From assembly GCA_043778225.1 (NCBI GenBank), contig JAYWGM010000080.1, positions 13,910 to 77,909 of the forward strand: a stretch of DNA of 64,000 nucleotides, given 5' to 3'. This DNA is from Deinococcales bacterium. GTDB lineage: Bacteria; Deinococcota; Deinococci; Deinococcales; JAAFIG01. Below the pieces are notes generated by a model that was given only the letters and a program-made list of their open reading frames with translations, had not been told where the DNA came from and made no database searches. Positions 1 to 25,030 of the stretch are shown piece by piece; within the stretch, counting starts at the first letter, position 1, and each line of letters opens with the position of its first letter. The position numbers and the translations under genes were made by a program.

Positions 1-203
1 ACCAATTGATTTTGCTGGGTGCGGGGCAGATGGTTTTCTATCGGCTCGAGAATTCGCACAAAATCCTGATGTTGTTGAAGATTACGGGCTAAACGCAGTA
101 CAGAAGGCAATGATTGTGCCAAGGCAAACCAGTTTTTTGTCTGAATCAATTTTTTGCATTGACTAAAATACTCATTCCATTGAAGACTGGTACTGATTCG
201 CAT
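1..203 (-). CDS. 5' part of a CDS running off the window, probably a helical/TPR-type transcriptional regulator (MRISTSLQWNEYFSQCKKLIQTKNWFALAQSLPSVLRLARN...)
   Basis: Open frame from the ATG at 203 to the window edge. Amphipathic helical N-terminus, 49 nt downstream of a small secreted-peptide gene. Function is inferred only. Confidence 0.55.
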   Translation of the reverse strand, partial: MRISTSLQWNEYFSQCKKLIQTKNWFALAQSLPSVLRLARNLQQHQDFVRILEPIENHLPRTQQNQL

Positions 204-212
204 GATTGGTAG

Positions 213-244
213 TGTAGCGCCAAAAGTAAGCTCTTGGCGCTACA
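213..244. terminator. 11-bp perfect inverted repeat between the peptide gene and the downstream CDS (terminator or mRNA-stabilising hairpin)
   Basis: TGTAGCGCCAA (213-223) / TTGGCGCTACA (234-244); no long U-tract. Confidence 0.55.
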
Positions 245-252
245 GTGTGGCA

Positions 253-387
253 TTAACCGCCAGAGCCACCACCAGGGTCATCCCCAGCCATCAACACAGG
301 GGTAGGGTTGGAGATGACTGTATTTGGAACTGCCACCACCGCTAAGAGGAACACCGCGACCAGAACTTGAACGACACGCTTGAACAT
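253..387 (-). CDS. Small secreted peptide precursor, 44 aa: MFKRVVQVLVAVFLLAVVAVPNTVISNPTPVLMAGDDPGGGSGG
   Basis: AAGGAG RBS 5-6 nt upstream of ATG; basic N-region plus hydrophobic core (signal peptide); below the ORF-track cutoff. Confidence 0.8.
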   Translation of the reverse strand: MFKRVVQVLVAVFLLAVVAVPNTVISNPTPVLMAGDDPGGGSGG

Positions 388-541
388 AAAAACTCCTTTC
401 GAGTGGCTGTAAAACCGCTCGAAGGTGAGTTTCGTTGGCTAGTGCGTCAAATCGTGACGTGGTAAAAATACCCCTTGGGATACTGGTCGTATCTGGGGCA
501 TTGAATTAACAACATCATTTGGTTAGCTTGGATTCAAGCCT

Positions 542-766
542 TTATTTCTTGACTTCTTCAAAGACTGGTACATCGCCTAGCAATGGCTCGAGTCCAGCGT
601 ATCGGCGTTGCCAATGCTCGAGTCGGGCGTGTTCGGATTGGCTGGGCATAACCGCAAGATTATCGGGGCTGTTATCGGTCTTATCCCCATTTTTGTGATG
701 CACCACTTCTCGAGGCTCGAGGTCACGCCCCGTTCTGGTTGCAATACTTTTGGCTCGAGCAAAGTG
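542..766 (-). pseudogene. 5'-truncated HNH endonuclease remnant
   Basis: The frame continuing after the cupin stop reads GRDLEPREVVHHKNGDKTDNSPDNLAVMPSQSEHARLEH, an HNH_3-type HH-x-N-x-D-N-NL-H motif. No start codon or RBS upstream of the motif. Confidence 0.75.
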
Positions 767-1204
767 CTACAAGAATTGCAGTCCGTAATGCTGCCCGAGG
801 GCTTGGATTTGCTGCGCCGAGGCTCGAGTTTCAAGAAGTTCTTGTAAGTCCAAAAAATACTGGGCTAAACCGCCAGGATTTAAGATAAGAATAGCTCGAG
901 CCTCTAAAGAATTGGTGTTGGAAAAACAATGCACAGCCTTAGGTTCGATGGTTACGGTCTGACCAGCCGTAGCGACAAGGGTTTGATTGTTGATTACAAA
1001 ATTTATTTCTCCGTGCAGTACCACAAAAGTTTCTCGTTCTCGAGTATGAAAATGCAAATCACTATTCGCGCCAGCCCCAAGGCTTATCTCAAGGATACTT
1101 AAATCATCAGTCAAGAGCTTAATCTCGAGTTGAATTGCGCCTAAGTTGATTTTTAGCCACTTTTGGTCATTTTTTGGTGCTGGAATCATACCTAAGCGTA
1201 GCAA
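767..1204 (-). CDS. Cupin domain protein
   Basis: HFHTRERETF...PKAVHCFSN cupin motifs; start uncertain (ATG at 1189 is likely). Confidence 0.85.
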   Translation of the reverse strand: MLRLGMIPAPKNDQKWLKINLGAIQLEIKLLTDDLSILEISLGAGANSDLHFHTRERETFVVLHGEINFVINNQTLVATAGQTVTIEPKAVHCFSNTNSLEARAILILNPGGLAQYFLDLQELLETRASAQQIQALGQHYGLQFL

Positions 1205-1547: not shown

Positions 1548-2264
1548 ATGCCTACCTTTGAACTGGACTACTTAAATCCCGATTCCGATTTTGTGGAAAG
1601 CATTTGGCGTTCAGAAAGCGAGGAGGCAGGGTCATTTACTTCAGTAGCAACTACGCGGTCTGAAATGGTTTTCACACGGCATCAGGGTGTGACTACCCTG
1701 CATTTGCGAGGACCAGAAACCAAAGCGACCTTAGCCGATGCTCCAGCCAATGCAGAATTCTTTGGAATTACTTTCAAACTTGGGGTGTTTATTCCAGATT
1801 TACCGCCAATTGCACTGGTAGACCAACATCCTAGGCTGACCCTAGCTACCAAGCAATCGTTTTGGCTTGGAGACCAGCAGGTTGCCTTACCGCAATTTAG
1901 CCAAGCCAATGATTTTATACAACACTTAGAACGCCAGAAATTGATTGGCTATGAACCACTGGTGGATATGATATTGCTTGGGCAACTCGAGAAAACAAGG
2001 ATCAATCCAAGAACTTTGCAACGTCGTTTTCAGTATGCCACGGGTTTATCACACCGTACTGTCAAACAAATCGAACGCGCTCGAATTGCTTTGGGTTTGC
2101 TCGAGTCTGGCGTACCGATTTTTGACGTGATTCACGAATTAGAATTTACTGACCAACCGCATCTAACCAAAACCTTAAAAGAACTGATTGGCTTAACCCC
2201 AGCCCGAATTGCCAGCATGGAATTGATTCATTCTCAACTCTCGAAACAAGAATTAAAGAGATGA
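1548..2264 (+). CDS. AraC-family HTH regulator (DUF6597-like N-domain)
   Basis: RTLQRRF...TGLS and FTDQPHLTKTLKELIGLTP AraC motifs. Confidence 0.9.
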   Translation: MPTFELDYLNPDSDFVESIWRSESEEAGSFTSVATTRSEMVFTRHQGVTTLHLRGPETKATLADAPANAEFFGITFKLGVFIPDLPPIALVDQHPRLTLATKQSFWLGDQQVALPQFSQANDFIQHLERQKLIGYEPLVDMILLGQLEKTRINPRTLQRRFQYATGLSHRTVKQIERARIALGLLESGVPIFDVIHELEFTDQPHLTKTLKELIGLTPARIASMELIHSQLSKQELKR

Positions 2265-4351: not shown

Positions 4352-6037
4352 ATGCAGACTTTTTCCCAGTACGCCGCAACCCGTTTGCTGCGCGAGCATC
4401 CGGCTCGAGCGCAAACCTTTGGTGGCATTGCGATTAAGACTGGCAGTATCCAAACCTATGCGGGCATAGACCTGATTACTGGAATGCCCGTTTTTATTTA
4501 CACCATGCCCGAAAAGCCCAATGCAATTCCAGAAGTCTACAGCGAGTTTATCCCGACGATTCTCGAGCTTGGTTTTGAACACGACCTCGGCTTTGTGGTC
4601 ACGGGCAGCGCTCCGGGCTACACCCCGATCAAACCAGTTTTGACCCAACAGCGCCTTGAGTGGTTGGTGCGCTCGAGCAGCCGTGCGATTGCCGATGCCC
4701 ACAGCGTTGGTTTAATACACGGCAACCTCGAACCAAGTCATTTTCTAGCCTGCGGCGACCATTTACTGCTCGAGGGCTGGGGCTTACCGTGGGGAACTGC
4801 CAGCCCAGATTATCAAGCCCCAGAAACCAATATCTCCTTAGCGACCGATGTTTTTGCGTGGGCAAGAAGCATCACGATGTTTGGCAAAGGCAAACCTCGA
4901 GTCATGCTCGATGGTGAATTTGGACGCTTGGTCGGGCATTGCCTTAACCCGCGCCCGTCGGAGCGCCCAACCGCCCAAGAATTGGTCTTGGCACTCGAGC
5001 AAGTCTTGCCACCACGCAATCCGACCATCCCAGACATTGCCGAAACCGCCCTCGAGTTATCTGCTACCGAATTTCTCGAGACCGATACCAACACCAGCAA
5101 CCCAATTAAACGCACCAAGCCGCTCGAGATTCCAATTAAAATCCAAACCAAATCCGAACCAAGCACACGCCACAACAAACCAGAATTGCCTGTTTTTGTT
5201 GTTCCGTTGCCTGTCGAAGAACCTATTCTAACAGCTGTTGAAGTTGCTCCAGTCTCAAGTGTTGAAGTTACTCCAGTCTCAAGTGTTGAAGTTACTCCAG
5301 TCTCGAGTGTTGAAGTTGCTTCACCAGAAGCCAAACTTGATGCGATTGAAGCCGAGTTGTCAATAAAAACAATTCCAGAAGCACCCGAACACCTCGAGCC
5401 TCTCCAACCACAAGCAGAACCAATTCTCGAGGTCTTACAGCTGCCAATCAGCCCCGAAATTCAGCCACAACCCGAGCCAGCCCAATTGAGCGAACCCGAA
5501 CACTTGGCAGCCGATGAACCCGATGTTCAATTGCCCAGCCGAGCCTCGAGCCGCATCACCGACGACAGCGATGCCGATGCACCACGCCCAGCCATCCGTA
5601 TTGGATTTGACGAAGAAGACCAATCTTGGCGCAGTGTCGTGACACCACAAAAAGCCCGTTCGCCGATTGGGCGTTGGATTATTATTGCCGTGCTGATTGG
5701 CTTGGTCATTGTTTTGGCTGGCATATTCTTGAGTCAACCCAAGCCAATCAGCGCCACCCCAAGACCAATCAATGTTCTAGGCGACCCCTCGAGTGGCAGT
5801 GTTGTGACTTTTAACTTGCGCGGCAGCGAGGGCATCAAAGGGCGTTTGATTATTGTTAGCGCCCCAAATAGCAGCAAATTAGCCGTTGGGGCATTGCTCG
5901 CCACTGTGCCAGGACCTGTGGCATTTCCAGTCAGTGGCGAGTACCGAGTCCGCATCGAAATACCCAACTACGACCCCAGTGAAATTACTGTTCGCGTGCC
6001 ACAAGAAACCCAAGTCAATCTCGAGTTGCCACGATGA
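4352..6037 (+). CDS. Membrane-anchored Ser/Thr kinase-like protein (probable pseudokinase) with Pro/Glu-rich linker, TM helix and C-terminal beta domain
   Basis: IHGNLEPSHF, EGWGL, YQAPE, DVFAW, CLNPRPSERPT are degenerate Hanks motifs; TM WIIIAVLIGLVIVLAGIFL. Confidence 0.75.
   Translation: MQTFSQYAATRLLREHPARAQTFGGIAIKTGSIQTYAGIDLITGMPVFIYTMPEKPNAIPEVYSEFIPTILELGFEHDLGFVVTGSAPGYTPIKPVLTQQRLEWLVRSSSRAIADAHSVGLIHGNLEPSHFLACGDHLLLEGWGLPWGTASPDYQAPETNISLATDVFAWARSITMFGKGKPRVMLDGEFGRLVGHCLNPRPSERPTAQELVLALEQVLPPRNPTIPDIAETALELSATEFLETDTNTSNPIKRTKPLEIPIKIQTKSEPSTRHNKPELPVFVVPLPVEEPILTAVEVAPVSSVEVTPVSSVEVTPVSSVEVASPEAKLDAIEAELSIKTIPEAPEHLEPLQPQAEPILEVLQLPISPEIQPQPEPAQLSEPEHLAADEPDVQLPSRASSRITDDSDADAPRPAIRIGFDEEDQSWRSVVTPQKARSPIGRWIIIAVLIGLVIVLAGIFLSQPKPISATPRPINVLGDPSSGSVVTFNLRGSEGIKGRLIIVSAPNSSKLAVGALLATVPGPVAFPVSGEYRVRIEIPNYDPSEITVRVPQETQVNLELPR
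5237..5320 (+). repeat. 24-bp in-frame tandem repeat, 3.5 copies (VEV[A/T]PVSS)
   Basis: GTTGAAGTTRCTCCAGTCTCRAGT x3 plus a partial copy. Confidence 0.95.
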
Positions 6038-6066
6038 AGCTCAATCTCGAGTTGCCACAATGAAAC
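6015..6066 (+). repeat. 26-bp tandem duplication spanning the kinase stop / NUDIX start junction
   Basis: TCAATCTCGAGTTGCCACGATGAAGC followed by TCAATCTCGAGTTGCCACAATGAAAC. Confidence 0.9.
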
Positions 6067-6560
6067 ACGACAAAGCCAGCCGAAAAACCATTTACCGTGG
6101 GAAAGTCTTAAATCTGCACCTCGATAACAATTATTGGGAAATTGCCGAACACAAACCCGCCGTGGCAATTTTGGCAATCCAAGACAACAAAATGCTGCTG
6201 GTGCGCCAATACCGAGCGCCACTTGAGGATTTTACGCTCGAGCTTCCGGCTGGTTTAATCGAGGCTGGCGAAGATGTACTGACGGCAGCGGCTCGAGAGT
6301 TTGCCGAAGAGTGCATGATGGGCGGCGATTTGAGTTTACTGAGTCGTTTCTATGTTTCACCCGGTTTTTGCGACGAACTGGTACATTTGGTACGCGCTGA
6401 AAATCTGCGCCCAGCTTACGGCATTCCCGACGACGACGAAGAGATTACCGTTGTGTTTTTAAGCCCCCAAGAACTCTTGGCTGGCGCTCGAGATGGCACT
6501 TTTAAGGTTTCCGCGCCAACCATTGCGGCAGCCTATTTGCTGCTTTCCGAAGGGCTGTGA
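6060..6560 (+). CDS. NUDIX hydrolase (ADP-ribose pyrophosphatase-like)
   Basis: LVRQYR, ELPAGLIEAGE...AAREFAEE Nudix box, SPGFCDE. Confidence 0.9.
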   Translation: MKHDKASRKTIYRGKVLNLHLDNNYWEIAEHKPAVAILAIQDNKMLLVRQYRAPLEDFTLELPAGLIEAGEDVLTAAAREFAEECMMGGDLSLLSRFYVSPGFCDELVHLVRAENLRPAYGIPDDDEEITVVFLSPQELLAGARDGTFKVSAPTIAAAYLLLSEGL

Positions 6561-6637
6561 TTAGAAATTATCGGTAGACCGAGCCTACACACTCGAGTTT
6601 CCTTAGCCGAGCCACCAGTCATGCTATAATTTTTAAC

Positions 6638-6883
6638 GTGAAAACAGCAATTTCAATTCCAAATCAAACATACCAAGATGCTGAACGAATTGCCGTAAAA
6701 TTGGGGTTAAGTCGCAGTGCTTTATACACCAAAGCAATTGAAGAATTTATTTCTCGCCAACGAATTCAAAGCATTACTGACCAACTCAATACAGTTTACA
6801 ATGAAACCGACTTGACCCTCGAAGAACAAAACTTTACTCGAGCCGCCGCTCAAGAGGGTCTAAAAAGCGTGTCATGGCAATAA
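6638..6883 (+). CDS. RHH antitoxin (ChpI/MazE-like), orphan
   Basis: MKTAISIP...LGLSRSALYTKAIEEF...ITDQLNTVY; TATAAT upstream of the GTG start. Confidence 0.75.
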   Translation: MKTAISIPNQTYQDAERIAVKLGLSRSALYTKAIEEFISRQRIQSITDQLNTVYNETDLTLEEQNFTRAAAQEGLKSVSWQ

Positions 6884-6893
6884 AATTTCATAC

Positions 6894-6927
6894 AAAAAAC
6901 GAGGCAAACATTGCGCTTGCCCCGTTG
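6894..6927 (-). terminator. Rho-independent terminator of ilvC
   Basis: Minus strand: AACGGGGCAAGCGCAATGTTTGCCTCGTTTTTT. Confidence 0.75.
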
Positions 6928-6940
6928 CTCGAGCTTCAAT

Positions 6941-7987
<1,047 letters not shown>

Positions 7988-15823: not shown

Positions 15824-17761
15824 GTGATTTACGAACCCAATCCGATCCTCGAGTGCTACCTCAGTGACCAATTTGACCTTGGCATCGAGACTTTTGATTT
15901 GCTCGAGACCGCAACACCGCTCGACTTACTTTGGGTTGGGCAGTGCCATTTTGGGCTTGACCACCATGTCGAAGCCCTCCATTATTTTTATCAAGCCAGC
16001 GCTCGAGGATATGTCGAGGGAACAATTTTTGCCTCAACTGTTTTGCGCTTTATTGGCAGCCACCAATTAGCCAATCAACTGCTGGCACAGGTCATGCACA
16101 AAGACCTTTCGGTATTTGGTCAGGCGGCTTGGTACAGAGAAAATGGTCTGCAATTGGTCGCAATGCGCCATTTTGCCTTGGCAATTCCAGAACTTGAACA
16201 GGCTTGGCGAATTGCCAGTGCCGACCCCATAGGGCAGCGTTTACTGGCTCGCTATTCGCAAAGTCTGGCTTTAGCACTGCTCGAGATTGGACGCGACCAA
16301 AACGCCTTGAAATACCTCAACTTGGCAATTAATCCAAAAAAACCGAATCCCGATTTACTTGTACTACGAAGTTCTGCTCTTGCTTACAGTGGTGAATTTA
16401 CCAAAGCCAAAGCAGACCTCGAGCAATTTCGTCAACTGGTTTCAGGTTCTCAGTCCACTTGGACTCATTTGGTTCATGGTTTTATCGCACGCTGTCAAGG
16501 TTTAATCGAACAAGCTACAACCATCTACCTTGAAACCGCCTCGAGTGCCAAAACCCTAGGCGAATGGGAAACCGAATTCTATGCCGAGGTCGCCTTGTGT
16601 GCCTTACTCACCGAACAAGGCAGTTACCACGTTGCCCAAGCACACCTGTCCAGAGCGCATGGGGTTATTCCTTTGCCGCGTGAAGATTTTGCGGTTCACG
16701 AAGCCATGATTGCCATGCGTCATGCTGCCCTACAAACATCCCAAGGCAATAAAGAGGCAATCAACACGCTCCAGCACGTCGCCCTCATCCTTGGACAGCG
16801 AAAACTCGAGCGCGAACTTGGCATTGCCGAACTGCACTTGTCCGAAGCCTATTTTTATAACAACCAGCAACAAGCAGGATTATCAGCTTTGGCTCGAGCC
16901 ATTCATTTGCGTCATGCGGTTGGCAGCCAAGCCTATTTTGCCCTTGAATTACGCGCCTTGCCTCATGTTTTCCAGACCGTTTGCGGCTTGAGAATTCGAG
17001 GCACAGATGTTTTCTACCAAGATTGGCAAACCCTAGAACGCCAAAGCCCACACGAAGTACAACTGACGACCCTAGGAGATTATTCGATTCGGCTCAATGG
17101 ACAAGTCGTTAAACTTGATTCTGGCACAGCCAAAGCAGTCGAATTTCTGGCGTACTTACTCGAGGCTGGCGAATCGCGTTTAGACCAGATGATTAGCGAA
17201 ATTTTTGATTCTGGCTCGCACAGCACCGCCCGTAATCGTATTCATAAGTTACGTGAATCAATCGCTCGGCAAATACCCGGCTTAATTGTTCCGCATAACA
17301 AAGAACGCAATACCTATCACCTCGAGCCAGTCGGTGTGCGTTTGCGCTGGGATGTGCGCGAACTCCGCAAAGCCCTCGAACAGGGTGGTGTGACTGGAAT
17401 GCAGCGCGTACTTTCGATGTACACAGGAGCATTCTTACCGCGCAGCGAAACCCAATGGGCAGAACAGACGCGCTTTGAACTTGAATTGAGCATTACCGAA
17501 GTTGGTCTTGAAACCCTCAACGAACTCTTTAAGCTCGAGCGCTTTGATGAGTGCTTACGATTAGCCGAACGACTGGCACAGATTGCCAACATGAGTCTTG
17601 GAATTCAACTGCTGCTCTTAAAAGCCACGATTCGGGTACACGGGGCAATTGCGGCTCGAGAACGACTCTTAAAAATAGACCCCATCATCCAAAACGATTT
17701 GCGAACCCTTCCAGAATTGCAATTTGAATTTCGCAACGCAGAGCGCGAATTTTTGAATTAA
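15824..17761 (+). CDS. Regulator with N-terminal TPR repeats and C-terminal wHTH/BTAD (SARP-like) region
   Basis: Helical repeats; LTTLG...LNGQ, KAVEFLAYLLE, WDVREL, YTGAFLPRSETQWAEQTR. Confidence 0.85.
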   Translation: MIYEPNPILECYLSDQFDLGIETFDLLETATPLDLLWVGQCHFGLDHHVEALHYFYQASARGYVEGTIFASTVLRFIGSHQLANQLLAQVMHKDLSVFGQAAWYRENGLQLVAMRHFALAIPELEQAWRIASADPIGQRLLARYSQSLALALLEIGRDQNALKYLNLAINPKKPNPDLLVLRSSALAYSGEFTKAKADLEQFRQLVSGSQSTWTHLVHGFIARCQGLIEQATTIYLETASSAKTLGEWETEFYAEVALCALLTEQGSYHVAQAHLSRAHGVIPLPREDFAVHEAMIAMRHAALQTSQGNKEAINTLQHVALILGQRKLERELGIAELHLSEAYFYNNQQQAGLSALARAIHLRHAVGSQAYFALELRALPHVFQTVCGLRIRGTDVFYQDWQTLERQSPHEVQLTTLGDYSIRLNGQVVKLDSGTAKAVEFLAYLLEAGESRLDQMISEIFDSGSHSTARNRIHKLRESIARQIPGLIVPHNKERNTYHLEPVGVRLRWDVRELRKALEQGGVTGMQRVLSMYTGAFLPRSETQWAEQTRFELELSITEVGLETLNELFKLERFDECLRLAERLAQIANMSLGIQLLLLKATIRVHGAIAARERLLKIDPIIQNDLRTLPELQFEFRNAEREFLN

Positions 17762-22546: not shown

Positions 22547-22582
22547 ACTGGGGCAAACTACTTTTAGGAAAAGGAGAAAATC

Positions 22583-24304
22583 ATGAAAAGATATTGGTTG
22601 ATCGCCGTGTTGTTTGTGGCTATTCTGGCTGCCTGTAACACACCAACGCCGACTGTTATTCTGCCCGAGGATGACCCAAGCACCACCCAAATCATTGATG
22701 GAACAGCCGCCGATGTCACCAATTTAGACACCACCGCCGTCTCGAGTAAAGCTGTGGTGTTAGATGCAGCCCTGTTGGCAGCCATTGTCAAAATAGACCG
22801 CAGTTCGGGCGAAGTGATTTTTGATGAAGCCAAATTACCACTGGGTTTACTGGCAACTGGTGGCAAACTCGAGGTCGGTAATACGATTGTGGCTCGAGGT
22901 ACACCTAAGTTAAGGCGCGGTTTGTTAAGAAAGATTACCCAAGTGACAAGGGAGAATGGCTTTGTGCGGGTTAAGACCGTGCAAGGTAAACTCAACGAAG
23001 TCTTTACGGCTGGTGGCTTTCGGGTGCAGCGCAAAATGAAATTAGCCGATGCCAAGTACATTATTTTACCCAACGGTCGAAAACAGGCTTTACAGCAGCA
23101 AACTGGAGTACGACCACAAGCCCTTGGGTTTCCAGTTCAAATTAACTTTTGCCCCGTTAATATAGACGGCAACACCGCCACCAAGAACGACCAAGTTTGT
23201 GTGTCTGGCAGTGTAGACATCAGCCTCGAGTTTATGTTTGTGTTTAAGTGCGAAGGCTTTTTGTGTACCAATCCGTTTTTGGACACCAATGTCAAGGTCA
23301 TTCAAACCACCAACTTGACCGTGACTGGCGAGTTATCGCGCACCATAGATAAACGCATTCCGCTTGGCACTGTGCCGCTCCCAATTATTGTCATTCCAGT
23401 TGGTTTTGTACCGCTTACTTTTGTACCAGAAATTGACCTCGAGGCAAGTTTAACTGGGCAAGTCAGCGTGAATTTTAACTGGAGCGCCAATCAACGTATG
23501 GAATTCACGGCGGGCATGGCACTCGAAAACGGCGCGTTTAGAACCTATGACCGTTTTACCAACGACATTGATACTTCTGGGATTGATGTCAGCATTAACA
23601 TGAACGCCGAGGCTCGAGTCGAAGCCGAAGCCAGTATATTGGTTTTTGGAATTGGTGGTCCGACCGTCACGGCTGGCTTATTTGTGACCTTTGAAGCGGG
23701 GTTTCCACGCACCCCAACTTGGTCTTTGGATGCTGGTTTTGATGTCAGTATTGGCTTAGAAATTGATATGTTTGGACTGATTCAAGCCGATGTCAAAGAA
23801 GAAATTTTCGAGAAACGTTTCCAACTTGCCGAAGCCCCAAATATCAAACCAACCGTTATTATTCAGTCTCCGCTCGAGGGCGACGAAATCGAATTAGCCG
23901 TCAATACCGATGCAGTAGGTATTCCATCGGCGGGTATTCCAGCCGGCACAAAGTACATTAAGTTACCCAAAGCCGACATTAAAACTGATGATGCCGAAGA
24001 TGGCGAACGCTGCTGTACCGTTGTCTGGGAATTTGGCAACAATGGCAACGGTGCGACCACCAATCCAGGACCTCATATGCTCGAGGACAGAAGAATCAAT
24101 GGTGGGCTGAACGGTGTTGCCAAGCAGCAAACCATCACCGTTACTGCCACCGACTCGAGCGGCGGCAAAACCACCAAGACTTGGAACTACAAATACAAAG
24201 AATGCCAGAATTATGTGACCTTTGCCGCCACGGGTCTACGTTCTTGTGCCACCCCGATGGATCCCAAATCGTTTGAAGCCTTTGGTCCAAGAACCCTCCA
24301 ATAA
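22583..24304 (+). CDS. Large lipoprotein, hypothetical
   Basis: Lipobox LAAC; AAGGAG RBS; beta-rich body with an Ig-like C-terminus. Confidence 0.85.
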   Translation: MKRYWLIAVLFVAILAACNTPTPTVILPEDDPSTTQIIDGTAADVTNLDTTAVSSKAVVLDAALLAAIVKIDRSSGEVIFDEAKLPLGLLATGGKLEVGNTIVARGTPKLRRGLLRKITQVTRENGFVRVKTVQGKLNEVFTAGGFRVQRKMKLADAKYIILPNGRKQALQQQTGVRPQALGFPVQINFCPVNIDGNTATKNDQVCVSGSVDISLEFMFVFKCEGFLCTNPFLDTNVKVIQTTNLTVTGELSRTIDKRIPLGTVPLPIIVIPVGFVPLTFVPEIDLEASLTGQVSVNFNWSANQRMEFTAGMALENGAFRTYDRFTNDIDTSGIDVSINMNAEARVEAEASILVFGIGGPTVTAGLFVTFEAGFPRTPTWSLDAGFDVSIGLEIDMFGLIQADVKEEIFEKRFQLAEAPNIKPTVIIQSPLEGDEIELAVNTDAVGIPSAGIPAGTKYIKLPKADIKTDDAEDGERCCTVVWEFGNNGNGATTNPGPHMLEDRRINGGLNGVAKQQTITVTATDSSGGKTTKTWNYKYKECQNYVTFAATGLRSCATPMDPKSFEAFGPRTLQ

Positions 24305-24308
24305 ATCC

Positions 24309-24491
24309 ATGCCCGACCTCGAGTATCACTTAAAAATCATCCCAGCCAAAGCAGGGCAGCCTTGGAGCGCCCTGCTTGAAGGCAACGGAGTCGTTTTGCG
24401 TTTCTCGAGTCTGCTCGAGTTGGCACGCTACCTCGAGGTCGCGGTTGGAAAAGTCAGTCATTCGGTTTTAGAAAAGGAGTTAAAAGCATGA
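24309..24491 (+). CDS. Small hypothetical protein
   Basis: MPDLEYHLKI...WSALLE...FSSLLELARYLE; ATGA coupling to the next gene. Confidence 0.65.
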   Translation: MPDLEYHLKIIPAKAGQPWSALLEGNGVVLRFSSLLELARYLEVAVGKVSHSVLEKELKA

Positions 24492-25030
24492 AAAAGTATG
24501 GATTATTGTTGGCTTGTGTATTACCAATCGCTTTTGCCCAAACCAGTTACCCAAGCACGGTGACTCGTTTAATTCCAGTCGAACGCGGAAAAATTGTTTC
24601 AATCACCAGCACCCTCGAGTCTGGCGTGGCAATGCCAGATTTATCATGGGCTTGGCGTTCGGACATGGCGTGTTTTGTGCAGTTGCAGGCTTGGAAATTT
24701 GACAATAAACACAAAATGTTTGCGATTCCAACCAAGTTTTCGGGTATTGGCGAAATTACCGTGCGGGTTATTCCAACCGACCCGAACATCAACCTCAGTG
24801 TTTGGTATTACATGGCTGGGTCAACCGATTACCGTATACCGCCACAAGTCTCGAATATGCGGGCTTGCGAAGCCGATTTTAAGTGGGACAGACCCTTTAA
24901 GAACCAAACCCAAGACCATACACGCTGGGTCTCGAGTGGCGCAAAAGGCAACGAGAATGTGCTGATTGGCGTGAGTGCGCCTAAAGATGTGACAACGGCA
25001 GAATTCAAGCTCGAGGTCTCTGTCAAATGA
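24488..25030 (+). CDS. Secreted hypothetical protein
   Basis: Signal peptide (AFA); AAGGAG RBS. Confidence 0.8.
   Translation: MKKYGLLLACVLPIAFAQTSYPSTVTRLIPVERGKIVSITSTLESGVAMPDLSWAWRSDMACFVQLQAWKFDNKHKMFAIPTKFSGIGEITVRVIPTDPNINLSVWYYMAGSTDYRIPPQVSNMRACEADFKWDRPFKNQTQDHTRWVSSGAKGNENVLIGVSAPKDVTTAEFKLEVSVK

Follow-up and report, generated by a model that had tools for sequence, protein, structure and literature searches.

The DNA analysed here (the window, 64,000 nt) covers positions 13910-77909 of the Deinococcales contig JAYWGM010000080.1 (C80 below), so that contig numbering equals window position plus 13909. At its very start, on the minus strand, the window holds a peptide gene and the 5' end of a receptor gene. 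The peptide gene consists of an AAGGAG ribosome-binding site (393-398), whose GGAG is kept in same-genus copies, and an ORF encoding a 44-aa propeptide (P0002, 253-387); 57 nt 5' of its ATG lies an inverted repeat, CG[AT]CA-N5-TG[AT]CG (445-459), a predicted operator for a WYL regulator. The last 10 codons past a conserved alanine (256-285) would encode the mature peptide, as judged from the tail consensus of the family. A 14-bp hairpin (213-244) follows 3' of the stop codon, and a TACACT -10 box (211-216), placed 7 nt 5' of the next ATG and predicted to form a leaderless promoter, precedes the receptor gene (P0001, 1-203; the whole gene runs from C80 14112 to 12454). The receptor is a 552-aa protein with tetratricopeptide repeats (TPRs) and a SARP-type winged helix, and the gap between the two genes is 49 nt at this locus.

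Just outside the window lie a gene for a WYL protein, a predicted sensor of DNA damage, and a cas operon; neither they nor the operators predicted to link them to the peptide-receptor pair were in view of the first-pass annotation. A direct repeat (C80 12404-12388) and the -10 box of its promoter (C80 12378-12373) come after the receptor gene, followed by a gene for an HTH-WYL-WCX protein (C80 12344 to 11352). Cas3, cas8e, cse2, cas7, cas5, cas6e, cas1 and cas2 (C80 11352 to 2749) stand 3' of the WYL gene in type I-E order, and a CRISPR array of 29 copies of a 29-bp repeat (C80 900-2750) lies beyond. These eight genes were named from their translations and order and from known family features; homologues of cas8e match Pfam CRISPR_Cse1. 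On the other side, 5' of the peptide gene, we noted a short ORF that looks HNH-like by eye (542-706, minus strand), then a cupin gene (767-1204, minus strand) and an AraC-type regulator gene (1548-2264, plus strand), none of which showed any sign of belonging to the cassette.

The first-pass annotation had singled out the 44-aa ORF for its AAGGAG site, hydrophobic N-terminus and polar tail, and comparison of three same-genus copies bears it out. Each pair of copies differs by 18 synonymous versus 10-12 non-synonymous codon changes, and third positions hold 24-26 of the 36-39 base differences per pair. This excess of synonymous, mostly third-position changes shows selection on the codons and makes the ORF very likely a real gene. 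Of the 25 homologous loci for which upstream DNA exists, ours among them, 18 passed a fixed ORF filter, against a background of 3 in 999 long reading frames in the genome, two of which belong to this family. Six of the seven loci missed by the filter have a clear peptide by inspection and the seventh, L017, a degenerate one. At L017 the receptor gene lies directly 5' of cas6, and only a remnant of the peptide tail is found, beside a tRNA-like sequence; the receptor there is possibly a signal-blind or eavesdropping copy. The propeptide has no match in Pfam.

The hairpin had been described as 11 bp long; it has 11 perfect base pairs, which extend to 14 with one G-U pair, a 4-nt loop and no U-tract. 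It is more stable than its shuffled versions (z = -4.9; 0 of 200 shuffles fold as well). As it occurs once in the genome, we rejected the idea that it is a dispersed repeat. A strong hairpin (z < -2) is present 3' of only 55 of 112 peptides of the family, in unrelated sequences, and the element probably either marks where the peptide transcript ends or stabilises it. One could also read the small ORF as a cis-acting leader or ribosome-arrest peptide of the SecM/MifM kind that controls receptor translation via the hairpin, for it has a signal-like N-terminus, a conserved C-terminal motif and a hairpin just 5' of the next start. This reading is scarcely credible, since the hairpin is so inconstant, since a chain of 44 aa is so short that its signal would still be inside the ribosome tunnel when the tail is decoded, and since the receptor gene has its own -10 box and no ribosome-binding site to hide. 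In 92 of 137 loci, versus 3 of 137 controls, a TAnnnT motif precedes an in-frame receptor start by 5-8 nt. Two studies, in their accessible parts, describe leaderless promoters as frequent in the phylum (PMC12340547, PMC4007540). Neither the obligate cis upstream position nor the RBS-hiding hairpin of SecM and MifM was found. In three loci (L079, L086 and L090), the peptide gene has in fact moved away from the front of the receptor gene and lies downstream of it, just before the WYL gene. The elements there track the genes: the inverted repeat goes with the peptide gene, a period-11 CGAC/TGAC repeat (imperfect in L086) with the WYL gene, and the -10 box with the receptor gene.

Upstream of the receptor gene, a peptide model reached 10 bits or more in 112 of 137 loci, compared with 0 of 137 controls on the opposite strand; because 95 peptides had seeded the model, the first of these figures is partly circular, but 18 of the 42 non-seed loci scored as well. 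The three loci with a relocated peptide gene come on top of the 112. The conservation of such ORFs beside TPR genes in Deinococcota, which had been put forward as a check on the first claims, is thereby upheld. Propeptides of the family are mostly 34-76 aa long. The one in the window starts with MFKR as its basic n-region, continues with a hydrophobic stretch (residues 5-20, about 375-328) and a Pro/Thr linker, and ends in the tail AGDDPGGGSGG. It is this tail, not the signal part, that is the conserved portion of the propeptide, with the consensus A-G-D-x-P-K-x-G-T-G-G (52 selected rows); variants carry CC or CxxC. In six loci of a distant Deinococcus clade the peptide is shorter, with a weak hydrophobic part and the acidic tail retained. 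All three receptor paralogues in our genome have an upstream peptide. Two of them, C27 12639-11095 (minus strand) and C56 28289-29929 (plus strand), follow peptides that end in CxxxxC or CxxC and have no adjacent WYL or cas gene, and the C56 paralogue is followed by large lipoprotein-like genes. The CxxC-tailed copies examined in the family have no adjacent WYL gene either, and one precedes a gene for an Ig-like domain protein.

Processing of the propeptide can be predicted from the same alignment. Of 112 peptides, 73 have an alanine right in front of the acidic part, and only 18 a canonical small-x-Ala site. In our own copy the -3 residue is leucine and the candidate site lies about 14 residues beyond the hydrophobic stretch, so that the predicted cleavage would be atypical for signal peptidase I. 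If the tail is the ligand of the neighbouring receptor, it could act without leaving its producer: the peptide would stay in the periplasm or membrane and serve as an export-reimport timer or as a sensor of envelope or secretion state. Deinococcota have an outer membrane, which a peptide must cross for action between cells, and this diderm envelope, the long linker, the weak signal-peptidase motif in many copies and the identity of some tails across genomes (one last-10-mer is common to 5 loci) would all agree with such a cell-autonomous role. A released signal, however, would fit the diversity of the tails (96 distinct last-10-mers among 111 peptides), the two peptide genes in tandem at L061, and the clear AxA sites directly before the tail in L096, L097, L099, L107, L079, L086 and L090. 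We regard confinement of the peptide to its producer as rather unlikely.

The co-oriented helical protein that ran off the window had been taken for a probable TPR regulator, and extension along the contig substantiated this. The complete 552-aa sequence matches Pfam TPR_12/TPR_1 above cut-off; across the alignment the family spans 518-572 aa, and TPR_1 was found in 34 of 34 members (E <= 0.05), BTAD in 1 of 34. The model (pLDDT 93) consists of helical repeats at residues 5-398, an OmpR-type winged helix at 414-513 and a short stub after it, the protein ending about 40 residues past the wing in what appears to be a truncated BTA domain of about 35 residues. Structural matches of the TPR part include RapI (Z 23.2, rmsd 4.7, 315 residues aligned), a phage Rap (20.8), NprR (20.7) and AimR (19.1), but OGT and LGN tie with RapI (Z 22.5-22.6) and a Foldseek search with the receptor returned generic TPR proteins only, so that the fold is no proof of peptide binding. 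Four arginines, Arg252, Arg259, Arg289 and Arg360, each recur in 80% or more of 136 receptors and would suit an acidic ligand. A co-fold of the receptor with the last 30 propeptide residues scored 0.02 against a mark of 0.32 and, taken without controls, speaks neither for nor against binding.

A DNA-binding domain, also expected of this neighbour, is present as the C-terminal winged helix of the model. Modelled alone, this domain best matches AfsR (Z 12.6, rmsd 2.9, 134 residues aligned) and EmbR (12.5), with OmpR-type domains at Z 9.4 or less; the Foldseek E-value is 1.9e-5, and the sequence-profile match to EmbR is weak (E 0.008).

Of 41 relatives, 25 have the receptor, as do 108 of 301 genomes of the phylum in a survey that scored four candidates per genome. 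By family, it occurs in 8 of 9, 65 of 112 and 34 of 62 genomes in three families, and in 0 of 14 and 0 of 103 in two others. The family analysis rests on 139 distinct full-length loci after nine partial matches and duplicates were dropped, and covers part of the matches in the 108 genomes. A representative library gave 211 receptor-like proteins at E <= 1e-30, and the two nearest Atlas clusters are mostly from Deinococcota. Among named plasmids, matches were obtained in Deinococcus (8), Thermus (3, partial) and Allomeiothermus (1). No match was found with the receptor among 50,697 phage records, nor in a scan of named genomes with a single receptor protein as query. Cultured hosts of the receptor gene include Allomeiothermus silvanus DSM 9946, Deinococcus gobiensis, D. 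grandis and D. proteolyticus, and the A. silvanus locus contains an unannotated peptide gene, the receptor gene, a WYL-Cas3 fusion and I-C/III-B genes. A shorter, distant TPR relative (L034 11536-12792) is encoded on small, integrase-bearing plasmids of Thermus (pL4C and two more).

Further pairs of small ORFs and large regulators were noticed in the same genome. In the window itself there is a second module of a different kind, in which a 34-aa signal-peptide-like ORF with a ribosome-binding site (15733-15629, minus strand) is divergent from the gene of a 645-aa regulator (15824-17761, plus strand) with TPRs, a winged helix and a BTAD-like part. With domains assigned by eye, a small ORF with a Gly-rich tail at C72 22456 (minus strand) is divergent from a gene for a 650-aa TPR/BTAD-like regulator (22563-24515, plus strand), and another at C21 8082 (minus strand) is convergent with a gene for a 944-aa BTAD/P-loop/TPR-like regulator (5143-7977, plus strand). 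Peptide-regulator pairs may thus form a wider class in this lineage.

The WYL gene adjoins the receptor gene in 111 of 136 loci, being co-oriented in 100, fused to cas3 in 5 (strict test) and convergent in 6. Its product in our genome has HTH-WYL-WCX architecture, with Pfam WCX above cut-off and WYL and HTH_11 below, and its only PDB sequence matches are five WYL/DeoR-type chains (E 2e-4 to 8e-4), which we take to be the DriD entries. Cas genes lie within 4.6 kb in 52 of the 62 high-scoring loci with a co-oriented or fused WYL gene. Counted by WYL class over the 93 loci that extend 3.5 kb or more past the receptor, cas genes are present in 47 of 57 high-scoring loci with co-oriented WYL, 5 of 5 with fused, 0 of 6 with convergent and 2 of 14 without WYL, and in 1 of 11 distant loci; among shorter loci they are present in 25 of 40. 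All these counts are lower bounds because of the limited set of cas seeds. CRISPR types I-E, I-C and III-B are all represented at receptor loci. We also noted that WYL is fused to the Cas3 N-terminus in type I-C loci (L033 10397-13651; L062-L070, L078 and L127), with the direct repeat still 5' of the fusion, and that in a distant Deinococcus clade (L024, L146-L156) the receptor, WYL and a direct repeat of the GGAC form occur together among conserved neighbouring genes, none of them a cas gene.

An alternative is that the small protein is a co-regulated defence effector, such as a membrane toxin, a decoy or the precursor of a modified peptide, and that the TPR protein senses something else, for example a phage protein. 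Hydrophobic small proteins do occur in defence loci, some tails carry CxxC or CC, and the peptide gene stands under a WYL-type box. However, the peptide is kept with the receptor where WYL and cas genes are absent (L014, L016, L061, L091, L092, L094 and L096), no modifying enzyme family was found among the 94 next genes scanned, and other TPR/BTAD regulators of the genome have similar peptides in divergent or convergent orientation. An effector role is distinctly unlikely in our view, and an RRNPP-like peptide-receptor cassette, as the first-pass annotation had proposed by analogy, is the best reading of the pair.

Two operators appear to tie this cassette to the WYL and cas genes. The inverted repeat 5' of the peptide gene (1 mismatch allowed) occurs in 57 of 97 loci with co-oriented WYL, 1 of 5 with fused and 2 of 6 with convergent; the figures are 5 of 22 for loci that lack WYL and 2 of 100 for control stretches. 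It fits the DriD box, given as CGXC-N7-GXCG in the accessible text of PMC10853764. Three exact copies exist elsewhere in the genome, two of them at the starts of other HTH-WYL genes (C55 and C61). The element before the WYL gene, by contrast, is a direct repeat; a palindrome was considered there and rejected (3 of 100). Under a strict definition, a period-11 direct repeat past the receptor stop was detected in 55 of 88 high-scoring loci with co-oriented WYL, versus 8 of 88 and 2 of 88 in controls. It was also seen in 10 of 12 distant loci and 4 of 5 with a fusion, and in 4 of 26 that lack WYL. The period is 11 in 59 of 93, and the distance from repeat to -10 box is 10 nt in 46 of 55 loci. AfsR binds the afs box, two 11-bp direct repeats over the -35 region, according to the accessible part of PMC10936776, and the direct repeat found here has the same position.

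Both operators share the half-site CGAC, so that WYL could read both. In that wiring WYL would regulate itself and the TPR protein would act via another site or via protein contacts, and the distribution of the strict direct repeat (69 of 105 loci with WYL, the WYL-less figure being that given above) agrees with it. Against it stand the inverted form of the element at the other WYL genes of the genome (C55, C61), the head-to-tail, period-11 arrangement over -35, which is a SARP signature, and the presence of period-11 repeats 5' of non-WYL targets in L014, L031, L087 and L091. We consider such a wiring very unlikely and retain the TPR receptor as the predicted reader of the direct repeat, which is conserved at the place expected for a SARP operator; other SARP/BTAD proteins of the genome are also potential readers. 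At genome scale GCGAC-N6-GCGAC is not enriched (10 copies versus 2-15 for other spacings). In the 89 of 136 loci with clean repeats, Trp/Tyr at position 480 of the recognition helix accompanies a repeat whose first base is T (26 of 32 loci), and Ser one whose first base is not T (52 of 57). This was the best of 552 columns, but with so tiny a margin in mutual information (0.41 versus 0.40) and about five changes on the tree the link between residue 480 and the first base of the repeat is weak. More GCGAC period-11 repeats were seen at C28 59659, C32 96738, C35 3127, C75 40936 and 44145, and C98 37181; several face genes for secreted proteins and one lies beside a BTAD regulator gene, and they could mark SARP-type regulons.

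Collectively, the data establish that three genes are present and linked across Deinococcota, which folds the models adopt, and that three cis-elements are conserved. From these we propose, with a probability of roughly 60%, that the propeptide, the TPR-SARP regulator and the DriD-like WYL protein form a peptide-signalling feedback loop that sets cas expression, in which three transcription units are joined. The receptor would be made from its own leaderless promoter, and the propeptide would be exported by Sec and cut after the conserved alanine. The acidic tail of about 10 aa could then return via an oligopeptide ABC importer (the genome has 14 family-5 solute-binding proteins), bind in the TPR groove and switch the winged helix. 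By analogy with AfsR at the afs box, the receptor is predicted to bind the 11-bp direct repeat (about -38 to -23) and to act there as an activator of the WYL-cas promoter. The WYL protein, if activated by single-stranded DNA like DriD, would bind the inverted repeat and control the peptide promoter. We somewhat favour a positive sign for the loop, with the peptide as activator, in which case the peptide would be a density or danger amplifier for CRISPR.

A more specific version of the loop, which we hold only tentatively, is that the peptide is a phage-alarm pheromone. Single-stranded DNA in an infected or Cas3-active cell would switch on WYL and, through it, the peptide gene; the released 10-mer would then activate the receptor in neighbouring kin, and these would raise cas expression ahead of their own infection. 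If this is true, it would amount to a dedicated, locus-encoded priming of CRISPR at population level, with many peptide dialects across the phylum. The proposed loop as a whole is testable, since its candidate ligand, its two regulators and its two operators have been specified and the receptor gene occurs in cultured hosts.

The nearest parallel is the RRNPP/RRNPPA quorum-sensing group of Bacillota and their phages (Rap-Phr, NprR-NprX, PlcR-PapR, Rgg-SHP, PrgX and AimR-AimP), which the cassette resembles in its adjacent small propeptide with a hydrophobic, export-like N-terminus and a candidate signal at the C-terminus, in the cytoplasmic TPR superhelix, whose model matches RapI, phage Rap, NprR and AimR, and in its diverse peptide codes. 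Published criteria for the group are a propeptide of 10-100 aa, Sec export, a receptor of 250-500 aa, TPRs, and direct neighbourhood of the genes (PMC10075063). Three of these five, propeptide length, TPRs and neighbouring genes, are found here, and a receptor of about 530-570 aa falls outside the length range; as to export, a basic n-region and a hydrophobic stretch are seen, with small-x-Ala in only 18 of 112 peptides. The effector domain of RRNPP receptors is an N-terminal HTH or 3-helix bundle in the accessible part of PMC9765709, whereas the receptor described here has a C-terminal SARP/OmpR-type DNA-binding domain, comes from Deinococcota and is tied to WYL and cas genes. The pair would work in an RRNPP-like manner, but given that C-terminal domain and a length above 500 aa it is not an RRNPP member; the earlier interpretation is thus supported in part. 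The word "Deinococcus" is absent from the main texts of PMC10075063 and PMC9765709, and "CRISPR" from that of PMC10075063. As intracellular peptide-receptor signalling has been characterised in Bacillota and their mobile elements, the present system would extend it to Deinococcota and to another receptor architecture.

The SARP regulators AfsR and EmbR are the closest likeness for the C-terminal domain, and their 11-bp direct repeats over -35 recur here. AfsR keeps its SARP domain inhibited by means of its NOD and TPR domains (PMC10936776, accessible part). In the present receptor, by contrast, the TPRs come first, the BTA part is cut down to about 35 residues and a nucleotide-binding domain is lacking, and a peptide gene dedicated to the receptor lies next to its own; the protein has the OmpR-type winged helix of a SARP, and lacks the complete BTA domain after an N-terminal winged helix. 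To DriD, the likeness lies in the HTH-WYL-WCX architecture of the neighbouring protein and in the CGXC-N7-GXCG box nearby; the difference is that the box stands at the peptide promoter, not at the WYL gene's own, and that WYL is apparently under the TPR regulator.

Parts of the locus have appeared before in surveys. For Thermus, WYL genes next to cas3 have been catalogued previously (PMC5529391, accessible part), and the HB8 cas cluster is mentioned only in passing in what is accessible of PMC1274311. Shah et al. (2018, PMC6546367) describe, in the accessible text, a CRISPR accessory family, C3a198, a 3-member TPR family of 532 aa beside type III-B cas genes that includes Mrub_1490 of Meiothermus ruber. 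Its size and host, compared by description only, match our receptor family, and the two may be the same; the word "peptide" is absent from that main text, and no mechanism was found in its accessible part. A literature search, with most subscription papers outside its reach, returned no publication on this peptide-receptor pair.

Taken together, the proposed loop offers a concrete route for group-level tuning of CRISPR-Cas. In this it would resemble the quorum-sensing control of CRISPR-Cas, where a cell-to-cell signal sets cas expression. The AHL systems of Serratia and Pseudomonas control CRISPR-Cas in this way. The agr system of S. aureus does so as well, according to the accessible part of a preprint (10.1101/2023.01.17.524377). 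The agr and AHL circuits, however, are global systems of their hosts, whereas the signal and receptor proposed here would be a dedicated pair inside the cas locus.
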